Shown here: piece by piece, positions 14,928 through 49,832 of the stretch
How positions within the stretch are numbered: position 1 is the first letter of the stretch
Layout of the letters: the number at the start of each line of letters is the position of its first letter
Assembly (NCBI GenBank): GCA_965200315.1
Contig: OZ241362.1
Span: 224,001 to 288,000, forward strand
Origin: Candidatus Latescibacterota bacterium
GTDB lineage: Bacteria > Latescibacterota > UBA2968 > UBA8231
Length of the DNA stretch: 64,000 bases
Direction of reading: 5' to 3'
Position numbers and translations under genes: made by a program
The notes under the pieces: model-generated
Database searches by the model: none
The model's input: only the letters and a program-made list of their open reading frames with translations
What the model was told of the DNA's origin: nothing

Positions 14928-14943
14928 GCGCAGCGCAAAAATC

Positions 14944-23008: not shown

Positions 23009-23020
23009 GCGCCTTGCCCC

Positions 23021-26012: not shown

Positions 26013-26041
26013 TTGACATGTATGGGAACAGTGCATAGATT
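26013..26041 (+). promoter_or_regulatory. Sigma-70 promoter of the envelope cluster with A-rich UP element
   Basis: TTGACA-N17-TAGATT; A-rich tract at 25970-26010. Confidence 0.7.
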
Positions 26042-26095: not shown

Positions 26096-26992
26096 TTGAA
26101 GAGACTGAGTCTTCTCGCTTTGATTGCGGTGATGGCTGCTTCGGCTGCTTTCGCGCACCAAGCTAATTATTTCATGCCGCAGATTCCCAACCCCGACAAC
26201 ATGGTCGTCGACGGCAACGACGACGACTGGGGTTGGATTGATCCGGCTTTCGCCATCAACCCGGACACCATGTTCGAGATTCTCGGTAGTGAGTGGCCCC
26301 CGGCCAAAGACGACTGGGACTGCATTCTCTACGTGGCTTGGAGCTCGTCCCCCGACAATTCGCTTTACTACTTTGCTCGGGTTACCGATGACTCGCTGGG
26401 CCTCTTCGTCGAGAACCCCCAGGAGTATTGGAAGGACGACTCGCTGGAAATCATCATCGATGCCGACCACTCGAGTGAGAATTTCAACGAGACCGAGATG
26501 ACCTCCGGCCAGCAGTACGGTATCCGCGTTTTGCCCGCCGCTGGTCAGAAGGACACTTGGATCTTCAACGTGCCGCAGGAGAGCATCCTGTGGTCCACCG
26601 AGCGTCCTTGGTTCGTCTATGAGTGGACGCTCGATCCGCCGGACGCCCGCCCGATGGAGCAGCCCGCTGGTAGCTCGGTGACCTATACTTACGAGGTCAA
26701 GCAAGCTGTGTGGACCTTCCACGACAAGACGGGTCCCGATGGCAGCGCCCGCCACAACTTCGCCCCCGACCAGATCATCGGTCTGACCTTCCAGTTTGAC
26801 GAGACCGAGAATCCCGAAGCGGGCCGCGAAAAACAGCCGGGCACGACGCCGGTCAACGGCGCGTTCCAAGACAACTCAAACGGCTCGGACTTCATCACGG
26901 TGGAGACCGAAGGGGCTACGGGTGGTACAGGCGGCACGACGGCAGTCGAGGCCGATAGCTGGGGTCGGATCAAAAGCTACATGGTCCAATAA
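26096..26992 (+). CDS. Secreted CBM9/DOMON-like protein with C-terminal TAVEADSWGRIK motif
   Basis: Signal peptide (AFA); VDGNDDDW, LYYFARVTDD, WKDDSLEIIID and YTYEV motifs; G/T linker; RBS AAGGAGG with TTG start. Confidence 0.78.
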   Translation: MKRLSLLALIAVMAASAAFAHQANYFMPQIPNPDNMVVDGNDDDWGWIDPAFAINPDTMFEILGSEWPPAKDDWDCILYVAWSSSPDNSLYYFARVTDDSLGLFVENPQEYWKDDSLEIIIDADHSSENFNETEMTSGQQYGIRVLPAAGQKDTWIFNVPQESILWSTERPWFVYEWTLDPPDARPMEQPAGSSVTYTYEVKQAVWTFHDKTGPDGSARHNFAPDQIIGLTFQFDETENPEAGREKQPGTTPVNGAFQDNSNGSDFITVETEGATGGTGGTTAVEADSWGRIKSYMVQ

Positions 26993-27111
26993 GGGGCACC
27001 CTAGCATCTTCTGCTAGATCGCACATTGTGCGCAATTGATAAAGAGAGGTGGAGGCGACTTCATCTCTCTTTATCTATCGCCTCTGCACCGCTTTCAGGA
27101 AGGCATTCTCA

Positions 27112-27858
27112 ATGAGGATACGGAACATCGCAACGAGCGGGCTTTTGTCGGCTCTTTATCTGTTCGCGCTTGTCGGGTGCATCTCACAGGTGGGGCTGCG
27201 GCGCTTTGCAACGTCTCCCGAGCCCGTTCCTCAACAATACGAGGCCATGACCGTCCTCGACGACGGGACGATTGTCTACGCCAAGGATCGCTTGGAGATC
27301 TCGCTACAGGTGTTGGATGACGGATTCCTCAATCGCCAGTTCGCGGCGGATTCAAGAAAGGGTGCTGAATCAACCAATCCATACACCTATGGCAATTGGA
27401 AGCCTTGGGGCCAAGACTGGACTCCAGAGCGCTTTACCGTGGTCTTGCTAAAGGTCAAAAACTACGAGTATCCCAAGGTTTTCATCGACCCCAAGGCGCT
27501 CGTGATCACCACGTCGAACAGCCGAGTGTACAATGCACTCGACAGCGGACAGCTCGAAGATCTCTTCAGCCCGTATCTGCGGGCTTATACCGGCAACCAG
27601 CGGCGGCAGTTTGAGGCTACCACCGACCTGCTCAAACGCACCGTCTATCGGCCCGACATGATCTTTTCTGGCCAAGAGGAAGAAGGATATATCGTTTTCC
27701 CGGTTTTGCACAAAGACGTGAGCAACTTCACCATCAGTGTGTCGGACGTGGCCGTGCGGTTCGACTACAAGGGCGAACCGGTGGAGACGATTGACCTAGC
27801 ATTCAAATTTCAACGCGAAATTTACCACGCACTTCATCCGCACGCGGAGACGCCGTAA
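27112..27858 (+). CDS. Hypothetical lipoprotein
   Basis: Lipobox LVGC; RBS AGGAAGG; stop overlaps the next start. Confidence 0.8.
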   Translation: MRIRNIATSGLLSALYLFALVGCISQVGLRRFATSPEPVPQQYEAMTVLDDGTIVYAKDRLEISLQVLDDGFLNRQFAADSRKGAESTNPYTYGNWKPWGQDWTPERFTVVLLKVKNYEYPKVFIDPKALVITTSNSRVYNALDSGQLEDLFSPYLRAYTGNQRRQFEATTDLLKRTVYRPDMIFSGQEEEGYIVFPVLHKDVSNFTISVSDVAVRFDYKGEPVETIDLAFKFQREIYHALHPHAETP

Positions 27859-29819
27859 TGAATCGGGGGACGGCCCGCATTGCGGCGCTGTTGTTCGCCT
27901 TGTGCACCTGTGTGCAGTGGCTCAGCGCCGACGAATGGGTCCTCGGAGGGGATGGATTCCCTTGGCGTGATCTTGTCCAGGTCCGCGCCCAGATCGACGA
28001 CCAGAGCAGCCCCGGCGCGATTCAACTCCGAGGCTTTACGCCCGACGAGAACATCATCGCCACGCTCTCTTGGAAATACGGCAAGCCCAACGACTTAGTC
28101 AGCGAGGGCAATGCGGCGCTGTGGGATAATACGGCGGCTAGGAATTCCATTTCGCTGTCGATTGTCGATGGCGATGACACCACAAGCACGGCAGACCTTT
28201 TTAAAACCGCTGGCGTTGATCAAGACGGGCGCACGTTCTTTTTGGACATAGGCTCGCGCGTGCCAGCCGACAGCTTGGTTTTCTTTCCCCGGCAAGAGGG
28301 GACATACGCCAACGGCAAGCCCTTTAGCGAGGACTTTGTTCGCAAGCACCGGATTTCCGTCAGCGATGGGCTGACGTACGTGAACGAACAGCCGCTTTTC
28401 ACCTTGCTGCGCGACGTCCCGGTGAACCCCAACAGCGTGTTCACCATGAAATTTCCCCAGCAGTTCATTCGTTTTATTCAGTTGCGCGTGGGGTCGCGGA
28501 GCCCCTTTGAGATTGCCGAATTTGAACTCTACGGCAACGGCTTCGTGCCGCGGGCTACGTACCGGAGTCAAGTTATTGACTTGGGCGAGGTCTCCAACTA
28601 TGGCACCATATCTTGGGCCCAGCGGGCGCTGGAGTTGGTGGACGGCGAGTTGATCGAGTTGCCGGATCTGGGGCAGACCTCGGTCGCGGTGCGCATGAAG
28701 ACGGGCCAAGACGACAGCCCGCTGGTTCACTTCCAAAAGGTTGTTGATGACGAAACGCGGGCCGTGAGCCAAGTAGTGGTCTCGGAAGCGGATTACAACA
28801 AGCTGCCTTCGGGCGAGAAGGGCGATATCGAGAACGACGCTGATAACTGGAGTCCTTGGTCGTTGCCGCTCGAATCCGGGCAATTGATTCCGCTGCCTAG
28901 TCCGCGTCCCTATTTTCAGCTACAGATCATCATGGAGAGCCAAGCCGTGACGCAGACGGTGCGCATCGATTCGTTGCGGATTGAGCATTCGCTACCCTCG
29001 GCTGCTGCAGTCGTCGGCGAGATCTCCTTGGCCGACGAGCCCAACCCACCGACCGACATCGGCGTAATCGACAAAGACGATGCCGTTGTGCTGCCGAGCA
29101 TCGACGGGGGTGAAGAGGTGCTCTTCGCCTATGATGTGCGAGCCACAATAAACAGCAACCAGAACGGCTTTGATGCTTTGCGCATCGATACGCCGACGCC
29201 AGCGCGCTTTGTCGGCTTGCAGATGGGCGATCCGCTCGAGCCTGTGGAGCCAGATCGCGTGAACGCGGACGACAGAAGCATTGAAGTGATCTTCACTAGC
29301 AACAAGATCTCCTTTGACAACAATGTGCCGCTACGTGTGCTCTTTGAGGGATCAACCGTGGTATTCGGCACGATTTTCACCGGCGCGGTCTGGGATACTC
29401 AGTCCGATATTCTCGGCCAGCCCGTGCTCGAAGGCGATGCCAATTTCGACGTCAGCACCAACTCGCTGCGCGTGGCCCTGACCCAGAAGTCCGTGGGCGA
29501 AATCGTCCGTGCTATAGAGTTTAACCCTTCGGTCTTCACGCCGAATGGAGATGGCATCAACGACCACATCGCCATCAAGTACACCGTAATTCAGATCTCC
29601 GAGCCTAAGCCCATTGAGGTGGCCATTTACGACTTGGCGGGTCGGCTGGTGCGCGTGCTGGCCGACCGCGAGCAGCCTGGCGGGATTTACACCGAGCTGT
29701 GGGATGGGCGAAGCGGTGCAGACGAGGCCGTGCCCCCGGGCAGTTACGTGGTCTCGCTCTCGGTTAATAGCGGAATTGGCAACTTCAGGCGAGTCGGCGT
29801 CGTCGGCGTGGCCTATTGA
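27858..29819 (+). CDS. Secreted protein with discoidin-like region and FlgD-Ig/T9SS type B-like CTD (paralog 1)
   Basis: Signal peptide; IVDGD, FLDIG, WSPWS, GFDALRI, FTPNGDGIND and WDGR motifs; ends GVAY. Confidence 0.82.
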   Translation: MNRGTARIAALLFALCTCVQWLSADEWVLGGDGFPWRDLVQVRAQIDDQSSPGAIQLRGFTPDENIIATLSWKYGKPNDLVSEGNAALWDNTAARNSISLSIVDGDDTTSTADLFKTAGVDQDGRTFFLDIGSRVPADSLVFFPRQEGTYANGKPFSEDFVRKHRISVSDGLTYVNEQPLFTLLRDVPVNPNSVFTMKFPQQFIRFIQLRVGSRSPFEIAEFELYGNGFVPRATYRSQVIDLGEVSNYGTISWAQRALELVDGELIELPDLGQTSVAVRMKTGQDDSPLVHFQKVVDDETRAVSQVVVSEADYNKLPSGEKGDIENDADNWSPWSLPLESGQLIPLPSPRPYFQLQIIMESQAVTQTVRIDSLRIEHSLPSAAAVVGEISLADEPNPPTDIGVIDKDDAVVLPSIDGGEEVLFAYDVRATINSNQNGFDALRIDTPTPARFVGLQMGDPLEPVEPDRVNADDRSIEVIFTSNKISFDNNVPLRVLFEGSTVVFGTIFTGAVWDTQSDILGQPVLEGDANFDVSTNSLRVALTQKSVGEIVRAIEFNPSVFTPNGDGINDHIAIKYTVIQISEPKPIEVAIYDLAGRLVRVLADREQPGGIYTELWDGRSGADEAVPPGSYVVSLSVNSGIGNFRRVGVVGVAY

Positions 29820-29878
29820 TGGTTGATTATGGTGTTGGCGGTACTGACCGGTAAAAATTCAAAAGGGAGGATTCCAGC

Positions 29879-32509
29879 GTGAAGTGCATGCTCTACGCAG
29901 CAGTTGTCACAGCCGGTGTCGCGCTCCTGTGCGATGCAGCTTTTGCCCAACGGGTCGGCTTTCTGACCGGACGCGAACCGCGCGGCGTGGATGTCTATGA
30001 GATGGCGATGACACCGGCGCAGCGAAAGTGGCAATATCCGCAAAGCCTATACCACTTCTACCGTTGGACTGGCGAGGAGTACAGCAATTACGCCCGCCAA
30101 AACTACGAGCGCTACGTATCTACCGAGCTTGAAGGCTTTCGCACCTACGACCTCTACGGGAACTATATCACTCGTGGTTTCGAGGTGTACAACTGGTCCA
30201 TGGACAGTCCAGTAACTTCGGGCAGCACGGTGCGCAAGGGACCCAAATACAGTGGGTGGTTTCAAAGCTTAATCGTCTCGTCGATGTCCAAGGGACAGTT
30301 TTATTCCTCGATGACCATTGGCGACGCCTTGCGCACCACCCTGACGCCGCTGACCTTTTCCAAGCCAACCTTTAATGGCGTCCAGTGGGACTTTGCCGCC
30401 GATAAGTACCAGATGACTCTCTTGGCATCGCGCTTGGCCTCCCCGGGCACACGCGTAGATAATGAAAGTTCGCTTGGACAGATCCTAGGCGACATGACAA
30501 ACCTCTTCGGTGCGCACTCCAAAGTGCAGCTCGGGGATTTTTCTAAGTTGGGCTTTACCTATCTGAACATTGCCAACTTCTCTACAGGTCGCAAGCTGGG
30601 TGATAACTCGCTCAAAGGCGTGTTGACCGAGGCCCAAAACGGCGGCAACGTCGAGACGATCGTCCTGCGGCTCTCGGACGATTCGCCCGAAGACGGCGTA
30701 GGCGGTGCTCAGCTTTTTTCCGAACGCATTATCATCAACGGAGTTGATCATCCCGAAATCGTGCCCTCGCCGCGCGGTGGTGTGCGGCGCGCCGGCGTCA
30801 TTGAGGCCAATGGTGCTGAGACGTTGGAACTGACCTTTAATATTGCCCGCGACTTCCGCCAACAGCCCGATGACGAGATCACCACGTTTCAGGAGATCAG
30901 CGAAATCGAGTTCGAGCTGGTCATCGCCAACGACTACCGGATCGAAATCACCTCCAATCTGCAAGTCAATGCCCAGGGTGAGCCGGTGTTCTTGGAAGTC
31001 GAGCGCGCCCACGGCAACGTCAGCGATGGTTCGAACCAGCGCTTCATCCGCTTTAAATACGGCCTGCCCACCGGCAAGGACATCATCGGACTCAACTTTG
31101 ATATAGACGATATCAAGGGCTTCAATATGCGCTCGGAGCTTGCTTTCAGCCGGGCGTTTCGCCGCTTCCCCAACCAGAACTTCCAAGAGCACGCTGTCGC
31201 CCAAGACGACGGTTTAGCCTACTACCTTACGGCCTCGCAGGACGCATATCCGTTCTTTGCGTACGGAGAATTCTATCGTCTGGAGCCTGAGTACCAGACC
31301 AATGCGTTCATCTCGGATGCACGGGGTTTTATCGACTACGAACATCCAGAGCGCTATTCCTTTGAGGCCGTTGATGACAACGACGACCAAGACCGCTTTG
31401 CCGACTGGAAACGCCTGTGGCACAACGGCGACTTCGCCTTTGGCCAAACGCCTTTTGGCACAGGCGGCGCAGCCGACCCGCAGGTCTTTCCTGGGTACGA
31501 CGAGAACGCGGACTTCATCTCGGATTTTAACCAAAACGACAACAGCCATCCGGATTTCGCCGAGCCGTTTCTGCGCTACAACGTCGATCCACCTGAGTTT
31601 CTCTTTGGCGTTGACATGAACAACAACAACGTCATCGACCGCTTTGAGAACGATAACTTTGCCGACTATCCCTACCGACACGATCGCGATGGCTACAACG
31701 TGTACGGAGGCGTTCACTTGACCGAAGCCATCAAGGTGACTCTGGGCTACTCCACGGCCGACGAAATCAGTTCCAAGCGCAACGCGCAGATGAGCTATGC
31801 GGTAGTCACGGGCGAGTGGAAATGGCCGGGCATTGAGGCTCGGGCTTTCCAGTACGCTCGCTCGGTCCAAGACGACATCGAAGACGATGTGATCCAATGG
31901 GTCGATCCAGATGGATTTCGCGAAACCATTGACCCACTGATCGCCCAAGACACCTTTGTCTGGACCGGCTATCTGACGTTCGATTACCTGCGCCTTAAAA
32001 ACCTGAATATCTACAACAAGGTGAAGTACGATTGGTTCAGGCAGCGCGGCGAGCAGGCCGAAGTCAAAGACAATCGCCTCTTTTTTGGCGCGATTAACAA
32101 GGTGGATTATCCACTGTCGATTACCGACAACCTGTCTTTCTGGCCGCGCTACAAGAGCGTCTTCCGCAAGATCAACCCGACCTTTAGCACTGACCTCGAC
32201 ATCACCGAGTGGTCGCAGTTTTACATGCTGACCTCGAAGTACTTCCTCCTGCCCGGGACCTTTATCGAATACGGTGTCGAGTTCAACCTCTTTCGCAACC
32301 TCGAAGAGCGCCCAGAGATTTTGCCACCTGGGTACGCGGATGACTTCACGGGTTCGGTGCTCGCCTTGCAGTTTTCCAACAAGTCGGCGTACCACGGTTA
32401 TGCACTAACTATGAACACAGGTTTTCGCTGGGAGCGTCAGGCCTTTGCTGAAGCGACCGAAACGAACACCCTGCTCTTCATTCGGGCTTTCGTAGGTGTC
32501 CAAGAATAG
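29879..32509 (+). CDS. Large secreted protein, putative outer-membrane beta-barrel with acidic Ca-binding-like loops
   Basis: Signal peptide (AFA-Q); many alternating aromatic/hydrophobic strands in the C-terminal third; DENADFISD and DMNNNNVID loops. Confidence 0.7.
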   Translation: MKCMLYAAVVTAGVALLCDAAFAQRVGFLTGREPRGVDVYEMAMTPAQRKWQYPQSLYHFYRWTGEEYSNYARQNYERYVSTELEGFRTYDLYGNYITRGFEVYNWSMDSPVTSGSTVRKGPKYSGWFQSLIVSSMSKGQFYSSMTIGDALRTTLTPLTFSKPTFNGVQWDFAADKYQMTLLASRLASPGTRVDNESSLGQILGDMTNLFGAHSKVQLGDFSKLGFTYLNIANFSTGRKLGDNSLKGVLTEAQNGGNVETIVLRLSDDSPEDGVGGAQLFSERIIINGVDHPEIVPSPRGGVRRAGVIEANGAETLELTFNIARDFRQQPDDEITTFQEISEIEFELVIANDYRIEITSNLQVNAQGEPVFLEVERAHGNVSDGSNQRFIRFKYGLPTGKDIIGLNFDIDDIKGFNMRSELAFSRAFRRFPNQNFQEHAVAQDDGLAYYLTASQDAYPFFAYGEFYRLEPEYQTNAFISDARGFIDYEHPERYSFEAVDDNDDQDRFADWKRLWHNGDFAFGQTPFGTGGAADPQVFPGYDENADFISDFNQNDNSHPDFAEPFLRYNVDPPEFLFGVDMNNNNVIDRFENDNFADYPYRHDRDGYNVYGGVHLTEAIKVTLGYSTADEISSKRNAQMSYAVVTGEWKWPGIEARAFQYARSVQDDIEDDVIQWVDPDGFRETIDPLIAQDTFVWTGYLTFDYLRLKNLNIYNKVKYDWFRQRGEQAEVKDNRLFFGAINKVDYPLSITDNLSFWPRYKSVFRKINPTFSTDLDITEWSQFYMLTSKYFLLPGTFIEYGVEFNLFRNLEERPEILPPGYADDFTGSVLALQFSNKSAYHGYALTMNTGFRWERQAFAEATETNTLLFIRAFVGVQE

Positions 32510-32533
32510 GGGATACTATTTCTCTATGGATTC

Positions 32534-32573
32534 AAAGCGCCCGGCGTTCTCTGGCGGAGATGCCGGGCGCTTT
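32534..32573 (+). terminator. GC-rich hairpin (intrinsic terminator or mRNA stabiliser)
   Basis: AAAGCGCCCGGC...GCCGGGCGCTTT 12-bp perfect arms directly after the 876-aa gene. Confidence 0.7.
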
Positions 32574-32586
32574 ACTGCCTAACAAC

Positions 32587-40283: not shown

Positions 40284-40316
40284 CGAAAGAACACAGCGAC
40301 GCTTCAGTAAATTTTT

Positions 40317-40340
40317 TATACTATATATAGATATAGTATA
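40317..40340. promoter_or_regulatory. Perfect AT-rich palindrome, candidate operator
   Basis: TATACTATAT-ATAG-ATATAGTATA, immediately before the RBS (GGGAG) of 40356. Confidence 0.55.
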
Positions 40341-40355
40341 TCGGGAGTAAGAACC

Positions 40356-42401: not shown

Positions 42402-42412
42402 GGGAAGCACTC

Positions 42413-44863
42413 ATGTACAACTGTGCCATCGCCTTAGCACTACTACTCGCCTGCCACGCCCGCGCTGAGTTTCTCACCTTTGACCGCCAAGAGACTTGGG
42501 AGGCCAGCTGGTCGCTCAAGCCCCAGTTAAACATCTTCACGCCGGAAGGGCACTTGGGGCTGATCAAGTTCCGCAAGGACATCAACGCCGCGCTCGACGC
42601 CCATCTCTTCGTCCACCCGACCAATGAGCGCGGGGATGTGGCCGGTGGCATCTGGTCTGCGCTGAGCAACCCGAACGACGCTGCTCTAATCATCGACGGG
42701 GATGCCGCTACCTTTTGGCAGCCAGCCGGCGACGACCCGCTCGACAAGTGGATCGTGCAAATCGACTTGGGCCGCGCGGTACTGGCCCAAGAGATCCGCA
42801 TCCACTTCCCCGATGAAGAAGGGGCCAAACCCTTCCGTCAGTTCAGCGTTTTCGCCTCTACGGGTGCCCACGTGGCGGCCTTAGAGGACGTATATCGCTT
42901 CGCGCCGGTCTATCGCACGACCAAGCCCAACTTGGATACGTATGTCAGCTTTGGCTTCAAGCCGGCCGTGGAGGATACCACCCGCGCCGTGGAGCAACTA
43001 GGCGACGCTGGCGGCAATGCGGATTTTGCCGCTCCAGAGTTCACCGGCGATGCCAATACCGCCACCACGGGGGGCCGCAACAAGCTAGTGGCGACCGGCC
43101 AAGAGAATTCGCGGGTGGCCGCTAACTCTAGGTGGCAGATGATCCAGTTCATCCGCTTCCTCGTCGATGAGCACCAGCTCGATGGCGCACTCGCCGAAAT
43201 CGAGGTCATTACCGTTGGCGACAATATCAGCCTTGGGGTCGAGGAAAAGGGCGGCACGTACATCAATGGATCGCGGGCGACCGATCCCTTCTTCTGGCTC
43301 GACGGCAACCTCAATACGTACGGCGTTATCGAGGTACATCAGCAGTTTACCGAGTCGCGCGGCACGGCCTTTGAAGGGGGTTTGTGGTGGCAGGTCGATC
43401 TGGGGGCGACCTACTGGGTGGACGACGCGTTCGTCTATTGGCAAAAAGCTGGTGAGCGTCTCGCTGACTTTCGCTTGGGGACCAACAACGCCGGCACAGG
43501 GTACACCTTTTTCTCTTCCGACGGCACCAAGACCCTGACCGGAGAAATTGACTTTGATACGTGGATTTTTGAACCGGAATGGACCAATGCCCGCGAGCAA
43601 TACAAGCGGCACTACCGATATTTGTTCAATCCGCGCAAGGTGCGGCACATCTTCTGGTTGGCCTTGCACGATTTGGGTTGGCGCGCCCATCCCATGGAGC
43701 TACAGATGTTCTCCCCAGGCTACCCGGCCCAAGTCGTGATCCAATCGAACTTTTTGGACCTGAGTGCGCTCGCAGGCGAACCCAAGGTGATCAAGGCCGT
43801 CCACTACGACGCCGACCTGCCGCCCAATACCCAGATCGAACTGCGCTCCCGCTCGGGCAACGAGATGGGCGAGGTGTACACCTTTCACAACAAAATCGGC
43901 GAAGTAGTAACCGAGGAGAAGTGGAAAAGTTCGCCCAAGGTGCTGCGGGGCCGAGTGGATACCTCGGTCGTCGTCGGGGAGGATTGGAGCGAGTGGAGCA
44001 ACGTGTACAAGCTGTCGGGCGAGCCTTTTAAGTCGGACTCGCCGCGCAAGTTCGTGCAGCTAGAGCTGGTTATGAGCACGGAAGATCCCGAGGTGGCTCC
44101 TACGGTGCGCTCGGTCGAGCTGGAATTTGTCGATGCGCTGGTCAACGAGGCGCACGGGTCGATTCTGCCGCGTCAAGCCAAGCCCAACGAGAATACCCGT
44201 TTCACCTATATGCTGTGGCCGTCCGTGACCTCGGGGAACACGGGCTTTGATCGCCTGCGCTTGGTCGTGCCCGACTTGGTGCGGGCCGATGAAGTCGAGG
44301 TAATGATCGCCGCTCAGGTGGTTGCGCCGACGGCTATGAACATTGCCGCGGATTCGCTGTTGATCGACTTGCCGCAGGTGGTTCAAGGCGACTCGGTGCA
44401 GGTCGCTTTCACTACTCGGATAGTGCGGAACGCCGCAGTCGTAGAAGCCGATCTGGGTCTGAGCGACGCGCCCGGCCTGTGGCAGGACGTCGAGCCTGCC
44501 CAGCGCCGGTCCAACATAGTGCTCTTGCCCGAACTAGCCGATAGCGACCGCTTGATTGGCGACTTGCAGCTTTCGAGCCGAGTGCTCACGCCCAATGGCG
44601 ATGGAGTCAACGATGCAGTGGAGTTGAGCTTTGTCGTCTTCAAGGCCCAAGATGCGGTGCCCATAGTCGAGGTGAGCGACTTAGTCGGCCGGCCAGTGGC
44701 CCAATTGACGCCGATCTCAGAGGGGCCGCCCCACCGTTTTGAGTGGAATGGGCAAGACGCAGCCGGCGCGATTGTGCCTCCGGGCATCTATCTCTGGCGC
44801 ATAGACGTAAATGCGGACTCGGGCGATACCATTGAACTGCGCGTCGTCGAGGTGGCCTACTGA
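42413..44863 (+). CDS. Secreted protein with two discoidin-like regions and FlgD-Ig-like CTD (paralog 3)
   Basis: IIDGD..FWQP, QIDLG, QVDLG, WSEWS, GFDRLRL and LTPNGDGVND motifs; ends EVAY. Confidence 0.82.
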   Translation: MYNCAIALALLLACHARAEFLTFDRQETWEASWSLKPQLNIFTPEGHLGLIKFRKDINAALDAHLFVHPTNERGDVAGGIWSALSNPNDAALIIDGDAATFWQPAGDDPLDKWIVQIDLGRAVLAQEIRIHFPDEEGAKPFRQFSVFASTGAHVAALEDVYRFAPVYRTTKPNLDTYVSFGFKPAVEDTTRAVEQLGDAGGNADFAAPEFTGDANTATTGGRNKLVATGQENSRVAANSRWQMIQFIRFLVDEHQLDGALAEIEVITVGDNISLGVEEKGGTYINGSRATDPFFWLDGNLNTYGVIEVHQQFTESRGTAFEGGLWWQVDLGATYWVDDAFVYWQKAGERLADFRLGTNNAGTGYTFFSSDGTKTLTGEIDFDTWIFEPEWTNAREQYKRHYRYLFNPRKVRHIFWLALHDLGWRAHPMELQMFSPGYPAQVVIQSNFLDLSALAGEPKVIKAVHYDADLPPNTQIELRSRSGNEMGEVYTFHNKIGEVVTEEKWKSSPKVLRGRVDTSVVVGEDWSEWSNVYKLSGEPFKSDSPRKFVQLELVMSTEDPEVAPTVRSVELEFVDALVNEAHGSILPRQAKPNENTRFTYMLWPSVTSGNTGFDRLRLVVPDLVRADEVEVMIAAQVVAPTAMNIAADSLLIDLPQVVQGDSVQVAFTTRIVRNAAVVEADLGLSDAPGLWQDVEPAQRRSNIVLLPELADSDRLIGDLQLSSRVLTPNGDGVNDAVELSFVVFKAQDAVPIVEVSDLVGRPVAQLTPISEGPPHRFEWNGQDAAGAIVPPGIYLWRIDVNADSGDTIELRVVEVAY

Positions 44864-44893
44864 ACTTGAAGCGACCCGCTGGAGTTTGTTGCC

Positions 44894-45547
44894 ATGTTGA
44901 ACATTGTGAGAATTTCCTCGCTAGTTGTATTCATCGCTCTCACGGCCTGTGCCCAAGGATCGGGCGTGGTGTCCAAACGCCAGTTGAACTTATCCAAGCG
45001 TGGGATATCAACGACTCCTCCCAGCGTTACCGAGGGACAGGTCGGGCCTTTGCTGATACGGGGCCGCAGTGCATATCAGGCCGAAGTTGAAAGGACGATA
45101 GAGAGAGCCCAATCCGTGCCCATGGAAGATTCTGGTCTATTCGCCTTTTTCGGCACTGTTGATAAAAGCTATCTCCGATCGCAGGTGACAGATGTCCATC
45201 TGGAGATCATCCCCCGTATCATCGGGGTATTGCAAAGTCAAGGAGATGCCTTTACGAACAAAAATGTATCGCTTGAGTTTGCGGTTTCTTTTGTGATCAC
45301 AGACCTCCATTTTTGGTATGAAGTACCCAGGGATCATCTCAACCATCGGGTGGGCAATGGCTCTATGCACTTGGAGTTAGAAATAAGGCGCTTGGAAACC
45401 AACGAGGTCGAAGCGACGCATTTTTTGATCGAACAGCTAAAAAAACCCGAGTCCGCTGGCATGTACAGGTTGGATGGCCTACTTGATGAGGTCGCACAGC
45501 AGACGGGCCAAGTTGTCGTAGAATTCATGAGGTCGTTGGAACTGTAA
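44894..45547 (+). CDS. Hypothetical lipoprotein (AT-richer insert)
   Basis: LTAC lipobox; composition differs from the flanking paralogs. Confidence 0.65.
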   Translation: MLNIVRISSLVVFIALTACAQGSGVVSKRQLNLSKRGISTTPPSVTEGQVGPLLIRGRSAYQAEVERTIERAQSVPMEDSGLFAFFGTVDKSYLRSQVTDVHLEIIPRIIGVLQSQGDAFTNKNVSLEFAVSFVITDLHFWYEVPRDHLNHRVGNGSMHLELEIRRLETNEVEATHFLIEQLKKPESAGMYRLDGLLDEVAQQTGQVVVEFMRSLEL

Positions 45548-45600
45548 AACCTTCTGGCGATGGGAAGTTTAACTTCAATATCAACGAGGCTTGCAGTAGC

Positions 45601-47949
45601 ATGATCGAGAGACTCGGGATTTGCTGCATGCTCACGGCCTTGTTCATCTGCGGTGCGAGCCGTGCCGAGGAAATCCGCTTCGATACCCCGGCCGAGTGGG
45701 CGACTTGGGAAGTCCCGGAGGACATCGTCCAGTTTGCAGACGACGGCTCGCTGGAACTGAGGAAATTCCGCAAGCAGATCAACGCCACTCTTGATGCTCA
45801 TCTCTTCACCCAGCCTACCCAGACTCGCGGTAAGGTCCAGGGGGGGATCTGGCAGGTCGGCTCCAATCCGACCGCAGCCCGGCGCATCATGGACGGGAAC
45901 GAGGAGACAGTGTGGCGGCCTAGCCAAGCCGACGACTTGGTCGATTGGGTGGTGACCATTGACTTGGGGCGGCCCGTGCTAGCCGAGCGCATTCGCTTGG
46001 TGTTTCCCGACCGCGCAGGGGCGCGTCCTTGGCGACAATTCAGCGTTTTCACGGCCAATGGTGCGCGCATTCAGGCCACGGACGACATTTTCAAGTTCGA
46101 CCAAACCTTTCAGACGACCCAGCCCAACCAAGAGCAGGTCGTCGATATCGAATTGGTCGGTGAGCGCGACGTAACGCGAGTCATCGACGAAAGCCTTGGG
46201 CTGGAACCAGCCGCGCTGAACACCTTCCGCATGGTGCGCTTTGTGCGCGTGCGCGCCGACGAAAAGAGCACTGACGCGGCCTTGGCAGAAGTAGAGGTGA
46301 TCGCCGCCGGCGACAACATAAGTCTCGGGGTTTTGGCGCGCGGGGGCAGCTTTGACAACGGACTTTTGGCGCGTGAGCCGCAGAACATGTTCGACGGCAT
46401 CACCGACACGTACGGCAATATATTCACCGTCAAGACCAAGGGCGGCTGGCGCGAGAGCGGGGTGTGGTGGTCGGTTGATTTAGGGGCGCTGTTCTGGCTC
46501 GACGAGGCATTCATCTACTGGCAGCATCGCGGCGAGGGCCTGTCGAGCTTCCTATTCGAGGGATTGCAGGCTGGTTCCGGCTACCAAATCCTCTTTTCCG
46601 ATGGGCGGCGCACCATTGCCGGAGACATCGACTACACGCCACTGATCTTTGAGCCAAGGCCAGTCGGCGCAGAGTGGAACTTGCGCCACCATCGCTACGC
46701 ATTTGCCCCGCGCAAGATCCGCTACTTGTTCTGGCATTCGCTGACCGATACCGGCTGGTTTTCGCATCCCATGGAGCTGATGCTGTTTTCGCCGGGTTAT
46801 CCCGCGCAAGTGGTGTTGCGCTCGGGCTTTATCGATCTCGGCCAACTCGCTGGCGATGGTCGCGCCAAGGCCATCAAACGCTTGCGCTGGGAGGCGACAA
46901 CGCCGGCTCAGACGCGATTACAGGTGCGCTCGCGGTCGGGCAACACCCTGCAAGAGTTCTACACGTTCTACGACAAAAAGGGCGAGGAAGTTACCGAGAC
47001 GCGCTACGGGAGCCTGCCCAAAGTCATCCGCGGCCCTATTGACACCACGGTCGTCGTGGGGGCCGATTGGGGTGCGTGGAGCAACTTCTACCAGTTTTCC
47101 GGCGATGCGTTTAAGTCGGAGACGCCGCGCCGCTTTATTCAATTGGAACTGATTCTCTCCACCGAGGAGCCGGCTGTCGCGCCAGTGCTGCACGCGCTGG
47201 CGCTAGATTTTGAGGATGCGCTAGTCGCACAGGTAGCTGGGCAGATTACACCGCGCCACGCCGTACCCAACGCGGCGACACAGTTCACGTACACGTTGTG
47301 GACCAACGCGGCCGAAGGCGACACGGGCTTTGACCGGCTGCGCTTGTCCACGCCGAGTGCGGTGGATGCTGCGGCCGTGCGGCTGTGGATTGGTGGTGCG
47401 GCGCACGAGCCGAGAGGGGTGCGGGTGGAAGGGGATTCGCTGCTGTTGGTAGATTTACCGCAGGTGGTGCGGACGGATTCGATCGCCGTGGAGTTTACCG
47501 CGAAGGTGTTGCGCAATGCCACGGTCTTTGCCGCGGACTTGGGGCAAGCAGCGCGTCCCGATCTGTGGCAGTCGGTCGAGGCGGCTGCGCGACAAGCGAA
47601 CTTGGTCTTTTTGCCGGATCTGCCCGGCAGCGCGCGGCTGATCGGCGATTTGCAGATTGTGCCGTCGGTGTTTTCGCCCAACGGCGACGGGATCAACGAC
47701 CGCGTGCAGATTCGCTTTGCGCTGTTCAAGGCGGTGGATGCGTCTCCGCGCGTGGGCATCTTCGACTTGGCGGGTCGGGAAGTGGCGACTCTTGCATCGT
47801 CTGGTGGGGATGTGTTGCAGTCGTTTAGCTGGGATGGGTTGGATGCGTCGGGTGCGCGGGTGGGGCCTGGGGTGTACGTGTGCCGCATTGACGCGGGAGC
47901 CGATGCCGGGCAAGGGAAAGTAATACGCACCCTAGCCGTAGCCTATTGA
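45601..47949 (+). CDS. Secreted protein with two discoidin-like regions and FlgD-Ig-like CTD (paralog 4, close to paralog 3)
   Basis: KFRKxINAxLDAHLF, GDNISLG and HPMEL shared with 42413; FSPNGDGIND; ends AVAY. Confidence 0.82.
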   Translation: MIERLGICCMLTALFICGASRAEEIRFDTPAEWATWEVPEDIVQFADDGSLELRKFRKQINATLDAHLFTQPTQTRGKVQGGIWQVGSNPTAARRIMDGNEETVWRPSQADDLVDWVVTIDLGRPVLAERIRLVFPDRAGARPWRQFSVFTANGARIQATDDIFKFDQTFQTTQPNQEQVVDIELVGERDVTRVIDESLGLEPAALNTFRMVRFVRVRADEKSTDAALAEVEVIAAGDNISLGVLARGGSFDNGLLAREPQNMFDGITDTYGNIFTVKTKGGWRESGVWWSVDLGALFWLDEAFIYWQHRGEGLSSFLFEGLQAGSGYQILFSDGRRTIAGDIDYTPLIFEPRPVGAEWNLRHHRYAFAPRKIRYLFWHSLTDTGWFSHPMELMLFSPGYPAQVVLRSGFIDLGQLAGDGRAKAIKRLRWEATTPAQTRLQVRSRSGNTLQEFYTFYDKKGEEVTETRYGSLPKVIRGPIDTTVVVGADWGAWSNFYQFSGDAFKSETPRRFIQLELILSTEEPAVAPVLHALALDFEDALVAQVAGQITPRHAVPNAATQFTYTLWTNAAEGDTGFDRLRLSTPSAVDAAAVRLWIGGAAHEPRGVRVEGDSLLLVDLPQVVRTDSIAVEFTAKVLRNATVFAADLGQAARPDLWQSVEAAARQANLVFLPDLPGSARLIGDLQIVPSVFSPNGDGINDRVQIRFALFKAVDASPRVGIFDLAGREVATLASSGGDVLQSFSWDGLDASGARVGPGVYVCRIDAGADAGQGKVIRTLAVAY

Positions 47950-47957
47950 GGAATGCC

Positions 47958-49832
47958 ATGACTGTAGCTCCAGCCGTATACCGCGATCAAAAGTGGATCA
48001 TCTCGCCCTTTGGCGACCTGTTCTTTTTTATTGGTACGCCACTTTTGTGCTTGGTGACCATGCTGCCATTGCGGGCCGTGTTTGACTCGCAGACCATCGC
48101 CTTCTACGCGCTGGCCCTGTTTGCCACCGGCCACCATTTGCCGGGCTTTATGCGCGCATACGGCGACCCGGAGCTATTCAGTACCTTCAAGGAGAGGTTT
48201 ATCGTCGCGCCCATCGTCGTGCTCTTTGTGACGGCGCTGGCGCAATTCAATACCCTGCACGGGCTTTTCCTGGTGGTGCTAGTATGGGAGATCTGGCACC
48301 TGTTTATGCAGCACTACGGCATTATGCGAATCTACGATGCCAAAAACAAAATTTTCTCCAAGCTCGACGCCCGGCTCGACTGGCTATTGACCTTATGTGC
48401 CTTTGCAACGGTGGTCATCTATAGCCCCGAATACTTCCACCGCATCCTTGACCACAACCAGCGGGTTGGCGTGCCCTTCCTGTCGGCCGAATGGACGTTC
48501 CTGCTCAAAAAGGTGCTGTTCTATGTTGCGATGGCCGTGCTCGCGGCGTACTTGGCCAATATCGCCCGGCGGGCAATTACCGGTCAGAAGATAAGCCTAC
48601 CCAAAATCGCGGTGATGGCGACCACGGTGTTTATCATCTACTATGGCTGGATACATATCAACGACCTCGTCATCGGCTACGCGGCCTTTGCCGTTTTCCA
48701 CGATATCCAGTACTTCGCCATCGTCTGGATCTACAACAACAACCTCGTCAAAAGGCAGGAGCGCACCACCAAGCTCCTGCGCACGTTCTTCACCACGCGC
48801 ACCTTGCCCATTTTAGTCGCGTATGTGCTCGTCTGCTTTGCCTACGGCAGCATCAACATGATGGAGGGCTTCCTCAAGTCCGAGCAGGCGATCAAAATGG
48901 TCGAGATTTTCGTCATCACCTCGACGCTTTTGCACTACTACTTCGACGGGTTCATCTGGAAGATCCGCGACCGCAAAAACCAAGCCAATCTGGGGATCAA
49001 CGCTGAGGACGGGTCGGACCGCATTGGGTTGCGGGCGTTGACTGGCGGCTTGGCCTCGTACTTCCGCGAGACCGGCCGACAGTTGGCCTATTTCGCGGTG
49101 CCGATGGTGACGCTGTCGCTTTTCCAGTTTTACTGGACGGCCGACGAGGCCGAGGCGCGGGAGAAGATGGTCGAATTGTTCCCGGACTTGGCCGGTGCCC
49201 ACAACAACCTCGGCGTCTTTTATGCGCGGCAGGGCGATTGGGAAAGGGCCGCCGGAGAGTATCGGCGGGCGCTAGCGCTGGATGCGGGGGCCTATGAGGC
49301 GCACAAGAACCTCGGCCTGCTCTACGCGCGGCAGGGGGCGCTCGACAAGGCGCATCAGCACTACCAGCAGGCGATTGACCACAAGCCGCGCTACGTCGAG
49401 GCGCTCAACGCGCAGGGCTTGGTCTTTTTGCAGCGGGGCGAGTTTGCCAAGGCCGAGGAACGCTTCCGCGAGGCCCTTGACGAGTTCGACTATGCTCCGG
49501 CGTACAACAACCTCGGCACGGCCTATTTGCAGATGGAAAACGTGCCGGAGGCGATCTCTGCCTACCAAAAGGCCGTCGCGCTCAACCGGGCCGATGCTTC
49601 GCACCACTTCAACTTGGGGCTGGCCTTGCAGAAGGCCGGAGAGAACGAGCGGGCGGTCGCCGCGTTTGCCGCGGCGCTCTCTTTAGAGCCACGCCACGTC
49701 AAAGCCTATTTGAGCATGGCGCTTTCCTACCAGCGGCTGGGCCATATTGCCGCGGCGCGGCAGGCCTTGCAGCAACTCTTGGCGGTGGAGCCGAACCACG
49801 CCACGGCAGCGCGGCTGTTGGCCCAGTTGTGA
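47958..49832 (+). CDS. Multi-TM His-motif membrane protein fused to C-terminal TPRs
   Basis: About 9 TM; GHH, WHLFMQHYG, FHDIQY and LHYYFDGFIW motifs; then AHNNLG/AHKNLG/AYNNLG TPRs. Confidence 0.82.
   Translation: MTVAPAVYRDQKWIISPFGDLFFFIGTPLLCLVTMLPLRAVFDSQTIAFYALALFATGHHLPGFMRAYGDPELFSTFKERFIVAPIVVLFVTALAQFNTLHGLFLVVLVWEIWHLFMQHYGIMRIYDAKNKIFSKLDARLDWLLTLCAFATVVIYSPEYFHRILDHNQRVGVPFLSAEWTFLLKKVLFYVAMAVLAAYLANIARRAITGQKISLPKIAVMATTVFIIYYGWIHINDLVIGYAAFAVFHDIQYFAIVWIYNNNLVKRQERTTKLLRTFFTTRTLPILVAYVLVCFAYGSINMMEGFLKSEQAIKMVEIFVITSTLLHYYFDGFIWKIRDRKNQANLGINAEDGSDRIGLRALTGGLASYFRETGRQLAYFAVPMVTLSLFQFYWTADEAEAREKMVELFPDLAGAHNNLGVFYARQGDWERAAGEYRRALALDAGAYEAHKNLGLLYARQGALDKAHQHYQQAIDHKPRYVEALNAQGLVFLQRGEFAKAEERFREALDEFDYAPAYNNLGTAYLQMENVPEAISAYQKAVALNRADASHHFNLGLALQKAGENERAVAAFAAALSLEPRHVKAYLSMALSYQRLGHIAAARQALQQLLAVEPNHATAARLLAQL

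Follow-up and report, generated by a model that had tools for sequence, protein, structure and literature searches.

In Bacteroidota, polysaccharide-utilisation loci (PULs) encode SusC/SusD together with the surface glycan-binding proteins SusE/F, and genes for type-B CTD cargo of the T9SS adjoin the gene for a cognate PorP/SprF-family protein of the outer membrane, e.g. SprB with SprF. TonB-dependent transporters are 22-strand barrels with an N-terminal plug, and SurA and PrsA are parvulin-type chaperones. We analyzed a row of 14 genes in a 64,000-nucleotide stretch of DNA (the window) from a complete Latescibacterota genome of 5.36 Mb. In the literature searched, no such module was found to be described. 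Our best explanation, which we put forward tentatively, is that a PUL-like capture-and-uptake machine, specific to Latescibacterota and assembled from unrelated parts, is encoded in many copies, of which the row is one.

The 14 ORFs at 26096..49832 all lie on the plus strand and are tightly packed, with intergenic gaps of -11 to +116 nt, a TAATG stop/start overlap at g2/g3, and 4-nt overlaps at g6/g7, g7/g8, g10/g11 and g13/g14 (Table 1). This confirmed a preliminary description of 14 co-oriented genes divergent from a sugar-type ABC importer, and every ORF was found where that description had placed it. Its statement that the row lacks SusC, SusD, a TonB plug, PorP and glycoside hydrolases was borne out by a Pfam search of the 14 genes, and no ATPase gene was seen beside the SBP_bac_1 and BPD_transp_1 genes of the importer. 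N-termini were judged by eye from the translations, without a predictor; read in this way, g1, g3, g4, g10, g11 and g13 begin with signal peptides, and g2, g5, g6, g7, g8, g9 and g12 carry lipobox-like Cys motifs.

Promoter-like sites point in both directions from the divergent intergenic region, and the whole region contains 10 such sites versus 6.8 ± 2.6 in shuffles, a number that is not above shuffles. Contigs from four RNA libraries of one study span all of 25500-45400 at very uneven depth (1589 at 26069-26418 and 6.4 at 25600-26050), and g1 lies under the deepest of them. Those from two runs start at 26064 and 26069, which, contig ends being imprecise, is consistent with use of the plus-strand site. 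Single contigs join g1 to g4, and also g8 to g12, a bridging that does not prove one transcript. Read without a silent-stretch control, these contigs give a weak hint that the row is expressed.

Table 1. Features of the 14-gene row and its divergent neighbor (positions in the window).
Feature	Position	Strand	Basis or remarks
BPD_transp_1 permease genes	23021-24178 and 21527-23008	-	Pfam
SBP_bac_1 binding protein gene	24175-25884	-	Pfam
Divergent ABC importer	21527..25884	-	SBP_bac_1 binding protein and two BPD_transp_1 permeases (Pfam)
Mirror promoter-like site TTGACA-16-TACAAT	25948-25921	-	Points toward ABC genes
Promoter-like site TTGACA-17-TAGATT	26013..26041	+	10/12 consensus match; AT-rich divergent intergenic region
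g1 (C9), secreted CBM9-like protein, 298 aa	26096..26992	+	Signal peptide; no CTD, no lipobox
g2 (Lp), lipoprotein of no known family	27049..27858	+	Likely start ATG at 27112 (MRIRN...)
g3, A-type CTD protein	27858..29819	+	Signal peptide, jelly roll, second jelly roll, Ig-like domain, T9SS CTD
g4 (BAR), 876-aa outer-membrane-type beta-barrel (modelled), unannotated family	29879..32509	+	AF2 model, fold matches
g5, TPR lipoprotein	32560..33831	+	Pfam TPR families; lipobox-like N-terminus by eye
g6, FG-GAP / ASPIC-UnbV (CRTAC1-like) lipoprotein	33832..35532	+	Pfam FG-GAP_3 3e-42, UnbV_ASPIC 2e-22
g7, FG-GAP / ASPIC-UnbV (CRTAC1-like) protein	35529..37166	+	Pfam; 46% identical to g6
g8, TPR lipoprotein	37163..38551	+	Pfam; N-terminus by eye
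g9 (PPI), double-parvulin peptidyl-prolyl isomerase	38385..40283	+	Likely start ATG at 38541 (MTNNVRKW...), then lipobox-like FLFCC
g10, second A-type CTD protein	40356..42401	+	FlgD_ig 27.6 bits, CHU_C 26.9 bits (Pfam)
g11, B-type CTD protein	42398..44863	+	Two F5/8 type C domains followed by the common C-terminal ~440 aa, which include the CTD
g12, small lipoprotein of no family	44894..45547	+	Outside recurrent module
g13, second B-type CTD protein	45601..47949	+	F5_F8_type_C_2, CHU_C 27.9 bits, FlgD_ig 26.8 bits (Pfam)
g14, polytopic membrane N-terminal half and C-terminal TPR	47946..49832	+	Pfam gives TPR only

Four CTD-tagged paralogs had been noted in the row, and our Pfam, AF2 and VIA results agreed, showing g3, g10, g11 and g13 to be lectin-like, non-catalytic proteins with a T9SS CTD. 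The C-terminal ~440 aa is common to all four and ends in CHU_C and/or FlgD_ig matches (in g3, 33.3 and 28.3 bits, respectively); g3 and g10 are 27% identical over 683 aa (E 1e-63), and g11 and g13 are 47% identical over 817 aa. Upstream of this part, g11 matched F5_F8_type_C_2 (1e-13) and F5_F8_type_C (2e-9), its CHU_C score of 22.7 bits being below cut-off. In g3 (AF2 model, pLDDT 86.4), a CBM32/F5-8C-like jelly roll at residues ~60-232 matched the CBM32 module 4a42_B (VIA; Z 13.9, rmsd 2.2, 123 aa), the T9SS CTD at 547-653 matched the PorU CTD 6za2_B (VIA; Z 12.7, rmsd 2.3, 99 aa), and the SusE-like protein 7m1a was also among the fold matches (Z 11.3). No catalytic domain was found in the paralogs, and their CTDs fell below cut-off for both the type-A and the type-B NCBIfam models. 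CBM32/discoidin folds bind proteins and lipids as well, which counts against the capture reading.

The core T9SS genes, whose presence had been proposed as a check, were recovered in part: SprA and PorU were found in the genome, GldL, GldM and GldN were not, and matches to GldK and PorV were below cut-off. Because of these missing and weak components, we treat T9SS export of the CTD proteins as presumptive.

The 876-aa product of g4 had been called barrel-like, and its AF2 model, with long antiparallel strands across residues 167-873, matched membrane barrels without exception among the Foldseek and VIA matches listed (Z 9.6-13.3), including MtrB (E 2e-8), LptD, FimD, SlpA and TonB-dependent transporters. 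Thus, g4 models as an outer-membrane-type barrel of an unannotated family, at middling confidence (pLDDT 61) and with residues 22-167 and 498-599 unmodelled. The protein has a conserved N-terminal domain (~25-165), and a beta-sandwich is inserted at ~260-393; an acidic, D/N-rich loop at ~498-600 is invariant. Searched against Pfam at E<=1, 34 members of the barrel family gave no relevant match, Plug, TonB_dep_Rec and PorP_SprF included, and NCBIfam gave no match to g4. Like TonB-dependent transporters, g4 belongs to a similar length class and has a conserved ~140-aa domain followed, according to the model, by some 21-22 long strands, and Cir, FyuA, BtuB and the SusC-like BT1762 are among its longest structural alignments (VIA; 350-370 aa, Z 10-11). 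However, it differs from them in having no Plug or TonB_dep_Rec match, in an N-terminus without a TonB-box-like stretch by eye, and in an N-terminal domain predicted, with low confidence, to be partly helical; the 15 true Plug-domain receptors of the genome, versus 39 barrels of the g4 family, are encoded elsewhere. The missing Plug, TonB-receptor or other family match and the middling confidence of the model weigh against the capture reading.

The best VIA rows for g4 also included FhaC (Z 13.3), the PgaA barrel 4y25_A (Z 12.6), PelBC and BcsC, as would be expected if the barrel and the TPR lipoproteins exported a polymer, or the A- and B-type proteins themselves, as a dedicated translocon akin to exopolysaccharide porins of the TPR-plus-barrel kind or to two-partner secretion. 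TPR lipoproteins on both sides of the CRTAC1 pair and GT-C+TPR proteins in sister modules would fit such a conduit, and the failure to detect GldL, GldM and GldN leaves room for another route. We nevertheless consider it very improbable, since these matches are no better than those to porins, ushers and TonB-dependent transporters, the row contains no synthase, polymerase, flippase or POTRA/TPS domain and none recurs in the flanks, the TPR genes belong to the block for which no co-divergence with the barrel was seen (below), the barrel itself has no TPR, and SprA and PorU are available for CTD cargo.

The barrel has 39 paralogs in the genome, lying in 26 clusters that hold A-type proteins in 23 cases, B-type proteins in 23 and the double-parvulin lipoprotein in 22, and the core families make up 6.6% of the genome. 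In related loci of other genomes, A and/or B adjoins the barrel in 65 of 80. That the same families stand together 26 times in one genome and in 65/80 foreign loci is far beyond chance, in agreement with the earlier proposal that they co-occur as a lineage-specific, multi-copy module. Pairwise identities of the barrels were correlated with those of the nearest B (r 0.66, n=17), A (r 0.59, n=25) and PPIase (r 0.54, n=19), and for each correlation 0/500 permutations reached the observed value. These results show that the A-type and B-type CTD proteins, the barrel and the double-parvulin lipoprotein form a core whose members recur together and co-diverge. Duplication of whole modules could alone yield this co-divergence, a point against the capture reading. 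The proposal that the paralogs are interchangeable subunits was not borne out: A and B stand side by side as pairs, each diverging along with its own barrel, a pattern that favors cognate sets. A-B pairs without a barrel also exist, e.g. three tandem B-A pairs at 4.94 Mb.

The same analysis did not support inclusion of the TPR-CRTAC1-CRTAC1-TPR block in one system, as the preliminary description had it: barrel and CRTAC1 identities were uncorrelated (r 0.01, a value reached by 193/500 permutations), and 20 of 44 CRTAC1 copies lie outside barrel clusters. This block looks like a separate unit often found nearby, and both it and g12, which had no Pfam or NCBIfam match and one weak paralog in the genome, are probably add-ons outside the core. 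These observations, the A-B pairs that lack a barrel, and a gene order that is permuted among paralogous copies would be expected if there were no single machine, and the contiguity of independently evolving units (a C9-Lp-A-BAR set, the TPR/CRTAC1 unit, the PPIase and an A-B-Lp2-B set) reflected shared envelope-directed expression. This seems improbable to us because the 10-gene order C9-Lp-A-BAR-t-CR-CR-t-PPI-A (t, TPR; CR, CRTAC1) is kept in orthologous loci down to ~79% barrel identity, A, B and PPIase co-diverge with the barrel, barrel clusters contain 23 of the 25 PPIase copies, neighboring genes overlap or have short gaps, and RNA-library contigs bridge parts of the row, short of proving one transcript.

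The PPIase resembles SurA and PrsA in its two parvulin domains (Rotamase, Rotamase_2 and Rotamase_3, each matched in two stretches) and weak SurA-like N-terminal match (SurA_N_3, E 0.0057), and PrsA in its lipoprotein-like N-terminus. Unlike these chaperones, it has ~25 paralogs per genome, 23 of them clustered and co-diverging with barrels, which means one chaperone per module and not a single housekeeping copy. Some module copies also encode the secreted CBM9-like protein and the g2 lipoprotein. The former, g1, matched CBM9_1 (27.8 bits; cut-off 23.4) and has 13-20 paralogs in the genome, some with strong CBM9_2 matches; the latter has an invariant lipobox Cys in its family alignment and no Pfam, NCBIfam or PDB-profile match. 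The preliminary description held that barrel and lipoprotein form the pore, but with 14 genomic copies versus 39 barrels, and presence in 11/26 barrel clusters, the g2 family is no general barrel partner. In g14, six hydropathy segments fall within residues 1-300. Comparable PMT_2(GT-C)+TPR proteins have 9 of 10 genomic copies within module regions, and the N-terminal half of g14 shows no similarity to those of sister modules.

Across the phylum, the barrel was found in 106/168 genomes and the A family in 99/168; both occur in 75/75 genomes of the source's own family and in 0/56 of families f2-f4, which are also without PorU above cut-off. With the exception of family f14, barrel and A families track bona fide PorU over the phylum's families. 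According to record titles, the barrel family is also present in groundwater, lake and pelagic MAGs, beyond host-associated ones. In addition, a barrel clade 65-71% identical to g4 stands solo amid housekeeping genes (loci L032-L043 and L045), which does not favor the capture reading.

This distribution bears on the main rival to that reading, a surface-display or adhesion cassette in which the barrel accepts A and B as its cognate T9SS cargo and anchors them, as PorP/SprF proteins do for type-B cargo, with nothing imported through it; the many diverged copies would then provide a varied lectin coat by which a symbiont attaches to host matrix or particles. As with type-B cargo, the CTD-tagged genes adjoin a cognate outer-membrane barrel gene, with which they co-diverge, several paralogous cargo-barrel sets occur per genome, and CHU_C, a type-B model, matches the CTDs with scores that reach its cut-off or come close to it (33.3, 27.9, 26.9 and 22.7 bits). 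The tracking of PorU (f14 excepted), the dedicated periplasmic parvulin and the absence of degradative enzymes from modules also fit, the GT-C+TPR proteins in module regions suggest surface glycoprotein maturation, and the FG-GAP/ASPIC and TPR neighbors are compatible with adhesion. Also in line with adhesion, eukaryote-like repeat and fibronectin-binding proteins are reported to be frequent in sponge-associated Latescibacterota (PMC8163846). However, the module barrel, at ~876 aa, far exceeds PorP-type proteins and has no PorP_SprF or other Pfam match among 34 members, the fold of the CTD most resembles that of PorU, which is type A, the CTDs are below cut-off for both NCBIfam models, solo barrels have no cargo neighbors, and the family extends to groundwater, lake and pelagic MAGs. 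Furthermore, importer-like genes (DUF6785 or ABC) are embedded in or beside many of the sets, which an anchor does not explain. We therefore regard this alternative as unlikely.

The ABC system had been proposed to import the product. The idea of an importer next door stands, and this particular transporter is restricted to close relatives: 15 close orthologous loci have retained it as neighbor, and in 7 more distant ones a DUF6785 membrane protein occupies the divergent position. DUF6785 proteins are polytopic (9-10 hydropathy segments); of their 35 copies in the genome, 14 fall within the 14.8% of it that is module region, and they are present in 40 of 80 foreign barrel loci, in some between BAR and A (L053, L075). 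Against the capture reading, DUF6785 and the barrel are not co-distributed: the former is present in families f2-f4, which have no barrel, and in family f10 it occurs in 0/13 genomes and the barrel in 12/13. A further difficulty is that a Pfam search of 273 flanking ORFs from 24 module regions found no glycoside hydrolase, lyase or regulator as a regular module member; the degradative domains among them were limited to GH108, a GH95 C-terminal fragment and one sulfatase. PhyH (4/35) and MR_MLE (6/63) enzymes near modules were not enriched.

Altogether, the modules resemble Bacteroidota PULs in their many diverged copies per genome, in having one large outer-membrane barrel with non-catalytic surface proteins of carbohydrate-binding fold per copy, and in the inner-membrane transporters close by. 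They differ in that no SusD was found in the genome, neither a Plug nor a TonB-receptor signature is present in the barrel, the binders bear T9SS CTDs in place of lipid anchors, CAZymes and regulators are not regular members, and a private parvulin lipoprotein is added to the set. The capture reading is favored by the recurrence, co-divergence and matching phyletic pattern of the core families, by the barrel fold, the binding-type folds and the importer-like neighbors, by the 39 barrels versus 15 Plug-domain receptors in a genome with no SusD and, weakly, by the RNA-library contigs. In the capture-and-uptake machine that we propose, Sec would take A and B across the inner membrane and the T9SS across the outer one, and the cognate pair would remain surface-bound. 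The barrel would be the outer-membrane conduit, or conduit and anchor, for their ligands, and the parvulin lipoprotein may be a periplasmic chaperone for the barrel and/or its cargo. An adjoining inner-membrane protein, here the ABC sugar-type importer and in relatives and sister copies probably the polytopic DUF6785/DUF6784 protein, would bring the ligand into the cell. If this is true, the modules would constitute an undescribed route for the capture and import of a surface ligand, probably a glycan.

All 14 ORFs of the row (g1 to g14) were present in one orientation, spaced at -11 to +116 nt, with several of them overlapping at stop and start codons, and a signal peptide or lipobox-like motif, read by eye, stands at the N-terminus of every product but that of g14. 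The divergent neighbor of g1 is an ABC transport set made up, by Pfam, of an SBP_bac_1 protein and two permeases, and the AT-rich spacer between them carries promoter-like hexamers facing both ways. The source genome consists of a single contig of 5.36 Mb, of which the window spans bases 224001-288000; depositors labeled the organisms carrying protein relatives as Latescibacterota, Latescibacteria or Handelsmanbacteria, with Gemmatimonadota used for some MAGs.

Four RNA libraries from one study yielded assembled contigs that together cover 25500-45400 completely, and single contigs span 26064-31402, bridging g1 to g4, and 36178-45400. Contig depth was 1589 at 26069-26418, 285 at 26450-31402, approximately 20-25 further downstream and 6 at 25600-26050. 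Because such contigs give no ends, strand or level, and there was no silent control stretch, the coverage is no more than a hint of transcription of the row, in particular of g1. In all four runs the contigs are interrupted at 31379-31402 inside g4, at an invariant DNDDQD motif (31376-31402) that is common to the paralogs, and the break is therefore probably an assembly branch rather than an RNA end.

Table. Family assignments and coordinates of the features discussed. Positions are those of the window unless the whole-genome contig G000:C1 is named; assignments of g1 to g14 are from Pfam/NCBIfam.
Feature	Position	Strand	Assignment or content
g1			CBM9-like
g2	most likely internal ATG start at 27112	+	no family
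g3, g10			C-terminal CHU_C and/or FlgD_ig (A-type)
g4			no family (876-aa barrel)
g5, g8			TPR proteins
g6, g7			FG-GAP and ASPIC/UnbV
g9	most likely internal ATG start at 38541	+	two parvulin domains
g11, g13			C-terminal CHU_C and/or FlgD_ig, plus F5/8 type C (B-type)
g12			no family
g14			hydrophobic half, then TPR
Consecutive ORFs	6641-11988	+	GDSL/AlgX-like SGNH hydrolase, YfhO membrane protein, TMEM260-like GT-C protein with TPR; a further periplasm-facing set for glycosyl or acyl transfer, located ~14 kb upstream of the module
ORF pair	12102-14475	+	DNA methylase-like ORF (weak N6_N4_Mtase match), then XcyI-type restriction endonuclease; probable type II restriction-modification
Single ORF	14641-17016	+	791 aa, no Pfam family at E<=1e-4
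Consecutive ORFs	17793-21520	+	UvrD-like helicase, NYN-domain protein, PD-(D/E)XK nuclease; may be a repair or defense set
Three ORFs convergent with g14	49834-57010	-	724-aa FG-GAP/ASPIC protein and two GSDH-like proteins (984 and 661 aa)
Variant module (L095)	G000:C1:1356893-1378261		DUF4159, FlgD_ig and CBM9-like proteins
Variant module (L124-125)	G000:C1:3924745-3946926		as for L095
Variant module (L135-136)	G000:C1:4824937-4857598		as for L095
SprA, PorU, adjacent PorV-like gene	G000:C1:1598517-1602835 and 3732263-3737719		outside the window
FGE-sulfatase-like genes directly beside CRTAC1-like genes	G000:C1:3855257-3855715, 1747254-1747688, 4711609-4712115		

The preliminary description had recognized no SusC, SusD, TonB plug, PorP or glycoside hydrolase in the row, and Pfam scans bore this out. 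SusC-type families (Plug, TonB_dep_Rec) matched none of the 14 row proteins at E<=0.01 and none of 34 members of the barrel family at E<=1. SusD_RagB was found neither in the row nor in the genome, the positive control being matched in B. thetaiotaomicron, and none of the 15 Plug-domain receptors of the genome is a barrel paralog. A Sus-like PUL combines SusC/SusD with co-located CAZymes and a dedicated regulator, none of which is among the 14 genes, whereas the PorP/SprF partner of type-B cargo is defined by PorP_SprF, and neither g4 nor the 34 family members match Pfam. The TPR-barrel exopolysaccharide porins (BcsC/PgaA/PelB) have a fused TPR and a synthase operon; by Pfam, g4 has no TPR match and the row no synthase or glycosyltransferase-2, and it is very improbable that the barrel serves as an export conduit. 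Membership of the SusC/SusD, PorP/SprF and TPR-barrel exporter classes fails in each case on a defining feature. A TonB-dependent transporter has a 22-strand barrel and an N-terminal plug with a TonB box. By its sequence signatures g4 fails this comparison; its fold could fit, since the model places approximately 21-22 long strands after a conserved 140-aa N-terminal domain, though this domain is modeled at pLDDT <50.

Neither Pfam nor NCBIfam matched g4, none of the 34 family members matched a relevant Pfam family at E<=1, and the best hit of a barrel-family profile against PDB sequences (E 0.46) is noise. The family comprises 689 clusters at 50% identity, and every named relative is called 'hypothetical protein'. 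The AF2 model of g4 (mean pLDDT 61) contains the long antiparallel strands in residues 167-873, with a beta-sandwich inserted at about 260-393. Residues 22-167 and 498-599 are unmodeled and are the most conserved parts of the family (61% and 66% mean identity); 498-599 is an invariant D/N-rich region that, to the eye, resembles calcium-binding loops. The Foldseek/VIA matches listed for g4 are all membrane beta-barrels, namely MtrB, SlpA, LptD, ushers, porins, FhaC and TonB-dependent transporters, with low TM-scores, Z of 9.6-13.3 and no family standing out; the transporters match no better than the other barrels. The model therefore supports a large outer-membrane-type barrel and nothing more specific.

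It had been proposed that the barrel and the g2 lipoprotein together form the pore. LptD, which holds its obligate lipoprotein LptE inside the barrel, is among the fold matches of g4, but copy numbers lend the proposal no support, as the genome has 14 g2-type genes against 39 barrels and only 11 of 26 barrel clusters contain one. Complex prediction with barrel residues 160-876 and mature g2 was equivocal, with scores of 0.18, 0.55 and 0.00 in three runs and a median below the mark. Profile and Pfam scans of the g2 family returned nothing usable, DUF4352 being matched by one of its 14 members at E 0.3.

Copies of the row were counted by searching the genome with the 14 products (tblastn), taking non-overlapping matches that covered at least half of the query, of which there were 270. 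The 39 g4-type barrels fall into 26 clusters, 23 of which contain an A-type gene, 23 a B-type gene and 22 a double-parvulin PPIase, and 23 of the 25 PPIase copies lie inside barrel clusters. A CRTAC1-like gene is found in 16 of the 26 clusters and a CBM9-like gene in 9. Six core families (CBM9-like, g2-type lipoprotein, A, B, barrel and PPIase) account for 191 genes and 6.6% of the genome, and all 14 families together for 8.6%. A pattern scan of other genomes found at least 529 barrel loci; in 65 of the best 80 of these, A and/or B adjoin the barrel. The claim that these families co-occur as a multi-copy module is thereby upheld, both within the genome and beyond it. Among the same best 80, the order CBM9-like, lipoprotein, A, barrel, TPR, CRTAC1, CRTAC1, TPR, PPIase, A is kept in orthologous loci down to approximately 79% barrel identity, and paralogous loci contain the same families in permuted orders. 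Thirteen of the 15 loci without A and B belong to one barrel clade, and the other two lie on short contigs.

Barrels of the clade L032-L043 and L045, in other genomes, are 65-71% identical to g4 and have no A, B, PPIase or CBM9-like neighbors. Its sole annotated locus, L040, has housekeeping surroundings, with thiamin pyrophosphokinase on one side and enolase-superfamily and BNR genes on the other. The most diverged barrel paralogs of the window's own genome (25-28% identity to g4) occur in the variant module listed in the table, one locus of which has a 1090-aa TPR protein and ExbB/ExbD genes alongside.

Pairwise barrel identities within the genome were compared with those of the nearest partner genes, using 500 label permutations. 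Barrel identities were correlated with those of B (r 0.66, n=17), A (r 0.59, n=25) and PPIase (r 0.54, n=19), and in none of the three cases did any of the 500 permutations reach the observed value. There was no correlation with the nearest CRTAC1 gene (r 0.01, n=10; 193 of 500 permutations reached the observed value). These results show that the barrel gene and its A, B and PPIase partners have been duplicated, and have diverged, as sets, which by itself does not imply physical contact, and we consider it improbable that the row is a mere juxtaposition of units. The TPR/CRTAC1 block appears to be a separate unit often parked near the module. Of 168 genomes in the phylum, 106 have the barrel family and 99 the A family, in the same taxonomic families; both are present in every one of the 75 genomes of the family to which the window belongs and in none of 56 in families f2-f4, a pattern that, owing to the kinship of the genomes, amounts to about 14 family-level observations.

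The two A-type proteins, g3 and g10, are 27% identical over their full length and the two B-type proteins, g11 and g13, 47% identical; the subtypes have a C-terminal region of approximately 440 residues in common, and all four paralogs end in V/I-x-V/I-A-Y. CHU_C scored above cut-off in g3 (33.3) and g13 (27.9) and below it in g10 (26.9) and g11 (22.7), FlgD_ig was above cut-off in g3 and g10, and NCBIfam TIGR04131 and TIGR04183 remained below cut-off. In the AF2 model of g3 (pLDDT 86.4), residues 60-232 align structurally with CBM32 modules (4a42_B, Z 13.9, rmsd 2.2, 123 aa; also 7blg_A and 2v72_A), next come another jelly roll and an Ig-like region, and residues 547-653 align with the P. gingivalis PorU CTD (6za2_B, Z 12.7, rmsd 2.3, 99 aa, 22% identity). 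Foldseek matched g3 only to binding and Ig modules of such kinds, and no catalytic domain was seen in A or B.

As in the SurA/PrsA chaperones, g9 has parvulin domains, with Rotamase, Rotamase_2 and Rotamase_3 each matching two stretches (E 1e-19 to 2e-20); SurA_N_3 (E 0.0057, 16.9 bits) and all NCBIfam equivalogs were below cut-off. The g6 and g7 products have the FG-GAP repeats (FG-GAP_3, 3e-42 and 4e-48) and C-terminal UnbV_ASPIC domain (2e-22 and 8e-19) of CRTAC1/ASPIC-UnbV proteins. Proteins combining PMT_2 (GT-C) with TPR have nine of their ten genomic copies in module regions. A role for g14 as a GT-C glycosyltransferase akin to these proteins of sister modules was considered and rejected, as the likeness is confined to the TPR half.

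The genome was also searched for the T9SS. SprA (622 bits summed) and PorU (615 bits) were both above cut-off and at least 50 further ORFs match the PorU model at its CTD end only; a PorV-like gene adjoining porU reached 150 bits against a cut-off of 250, GldK gave only weak FGE-like matches (68 bits), and GldL, GldM and GldN were not found by model searches run without a positive control. Either the motor/ring genes are too diverged for models trained on Bacteroidota, or this T9SS runs without them. PorU was above cut-off in 105 of the 168 genomes; in f2-f4, which have neither barrel nor A, PorU-like matches were partial only. The module was seen only where a PorU-type T9SS is present, whereas four of the five genomes of family f14 have PorU without the barrel, which shows that the barrel is not a core part of the T9SS. 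Both GSDH-like proteins encoded convergently with g14 have FlgD_ig C-termini, and the proteins of that stretch are probably further T9SS cargo outside the recurrent module.

Flanking genes were scanned with Pfam on 273 ORFs in and around 24 other module regions, with five long ORFs and one further ORF left out. No glycoside hydrolase, lyase or regulator recurs among them, the yield being one GH108, one GH95_C fragment and one sulfatase. PhyH and MR_MLE (enolase-superfamily) enzymes were rejected as substrate markers, since they are abundant genome-wide and not enriched near modules. What does recur is a protein of approximately 650 aa with DUF6785 and DUF6784, whose 9-10 hydropathy segments indicate that it is polytopic. 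Of 35 copies in the genome, 14 lie in module regions, which make up 14.8% of the genome, and 20 are no more than 15 kb away from a barrel; it is also found at 40 of the best 80 of at least 529 barrel loci in other genomes. The family, often in tandem, occurs in 154 of the 168 genomes, including f2-f4, and in none of the 13 of f10, a distribution that rules it out as a strict module member. In the literature searched, no mention of it was found.

Fifteen close orthologous loci retain the ABC importer upstream of g1, and at seven more distant ones a DUF6785 gene stands in its place, in the same divergent position; DUF6785 also lies between the barrel and A in some paralogous copies. The swap suggests that one inner-membrane component was displaced by another of like role, and no other single observation argues as strongly that the module feeds an importer. 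The main rival explanation is that the barrel is a cognate anchor for lectins displayed by the T9SS, which would account for the absence of enzymes and for the private chaperone but leaves the embedded membrane proteins unexplained, and which we regard as rather unlikely. The reading that we favor, tentatively, is that the module may well be a capture-and-uptake machine, PUL-like in its working without being a PUL.

Capture and uptake would proceed through a plug-less, ~22-strand barrel of a new family, assisted by a cognate lectin pair that the T9SS displays and folded by its own lipoprotein parvulin. The barrel would hand the substrate to DUF6785/DUF6784 proteins, putatively a new inner-membrane importer family interchangeable with ABC systems, and the dozens of diverged copies would represent the phylum's substrate-specific repertoire. 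That all of these parts together constitute a new class of outer-membrane nutrient-acquisition system, replacing SusCD loci, is a more doubtful proposition.

We regard the architecture as new, because the barrel and the lipoprotein have no family, the combination is undescribed in the literature searched and the module fails as a member of the SusC/SusD, PorP/SprF and TPR-barrel exporter classes; its function is what we infer. Searches on Latescibacterota, T9SS, outer membrane, DUF6785 and PUL/SusC found no description of the module. The accessible portions of PMC12993501, PMC4454575 and PMC8163846 deal only with porins, TonB receptors, CAZymes and eukaryote-like repeats, and in those portions no barrel of this family, T9SS link or module is mentioned.

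The module family takes up approximately 7-9% of the genome, and its core barrel carries no annotation at all. Latescibacterota occur widely in sediments, waters and sponges, and we know of no cultured model for them. Under either reading, the module offers concrete targets for structure work and glycan arrays. If the barrels are anchoring platforms, they would illuminate T9SS cargo sorting in a lineage without detected Bacteroidota motor/ring genes. If they serve uptake, the module would represent a second answer, independently arrived at, to the task that falls to SusCD loci in Bacteroidota, would assign a function to the 689-cluster barrel family and to DUF6785/DUF6784, and would provide a genomic handle for predicting the diet of Latescibacterota.
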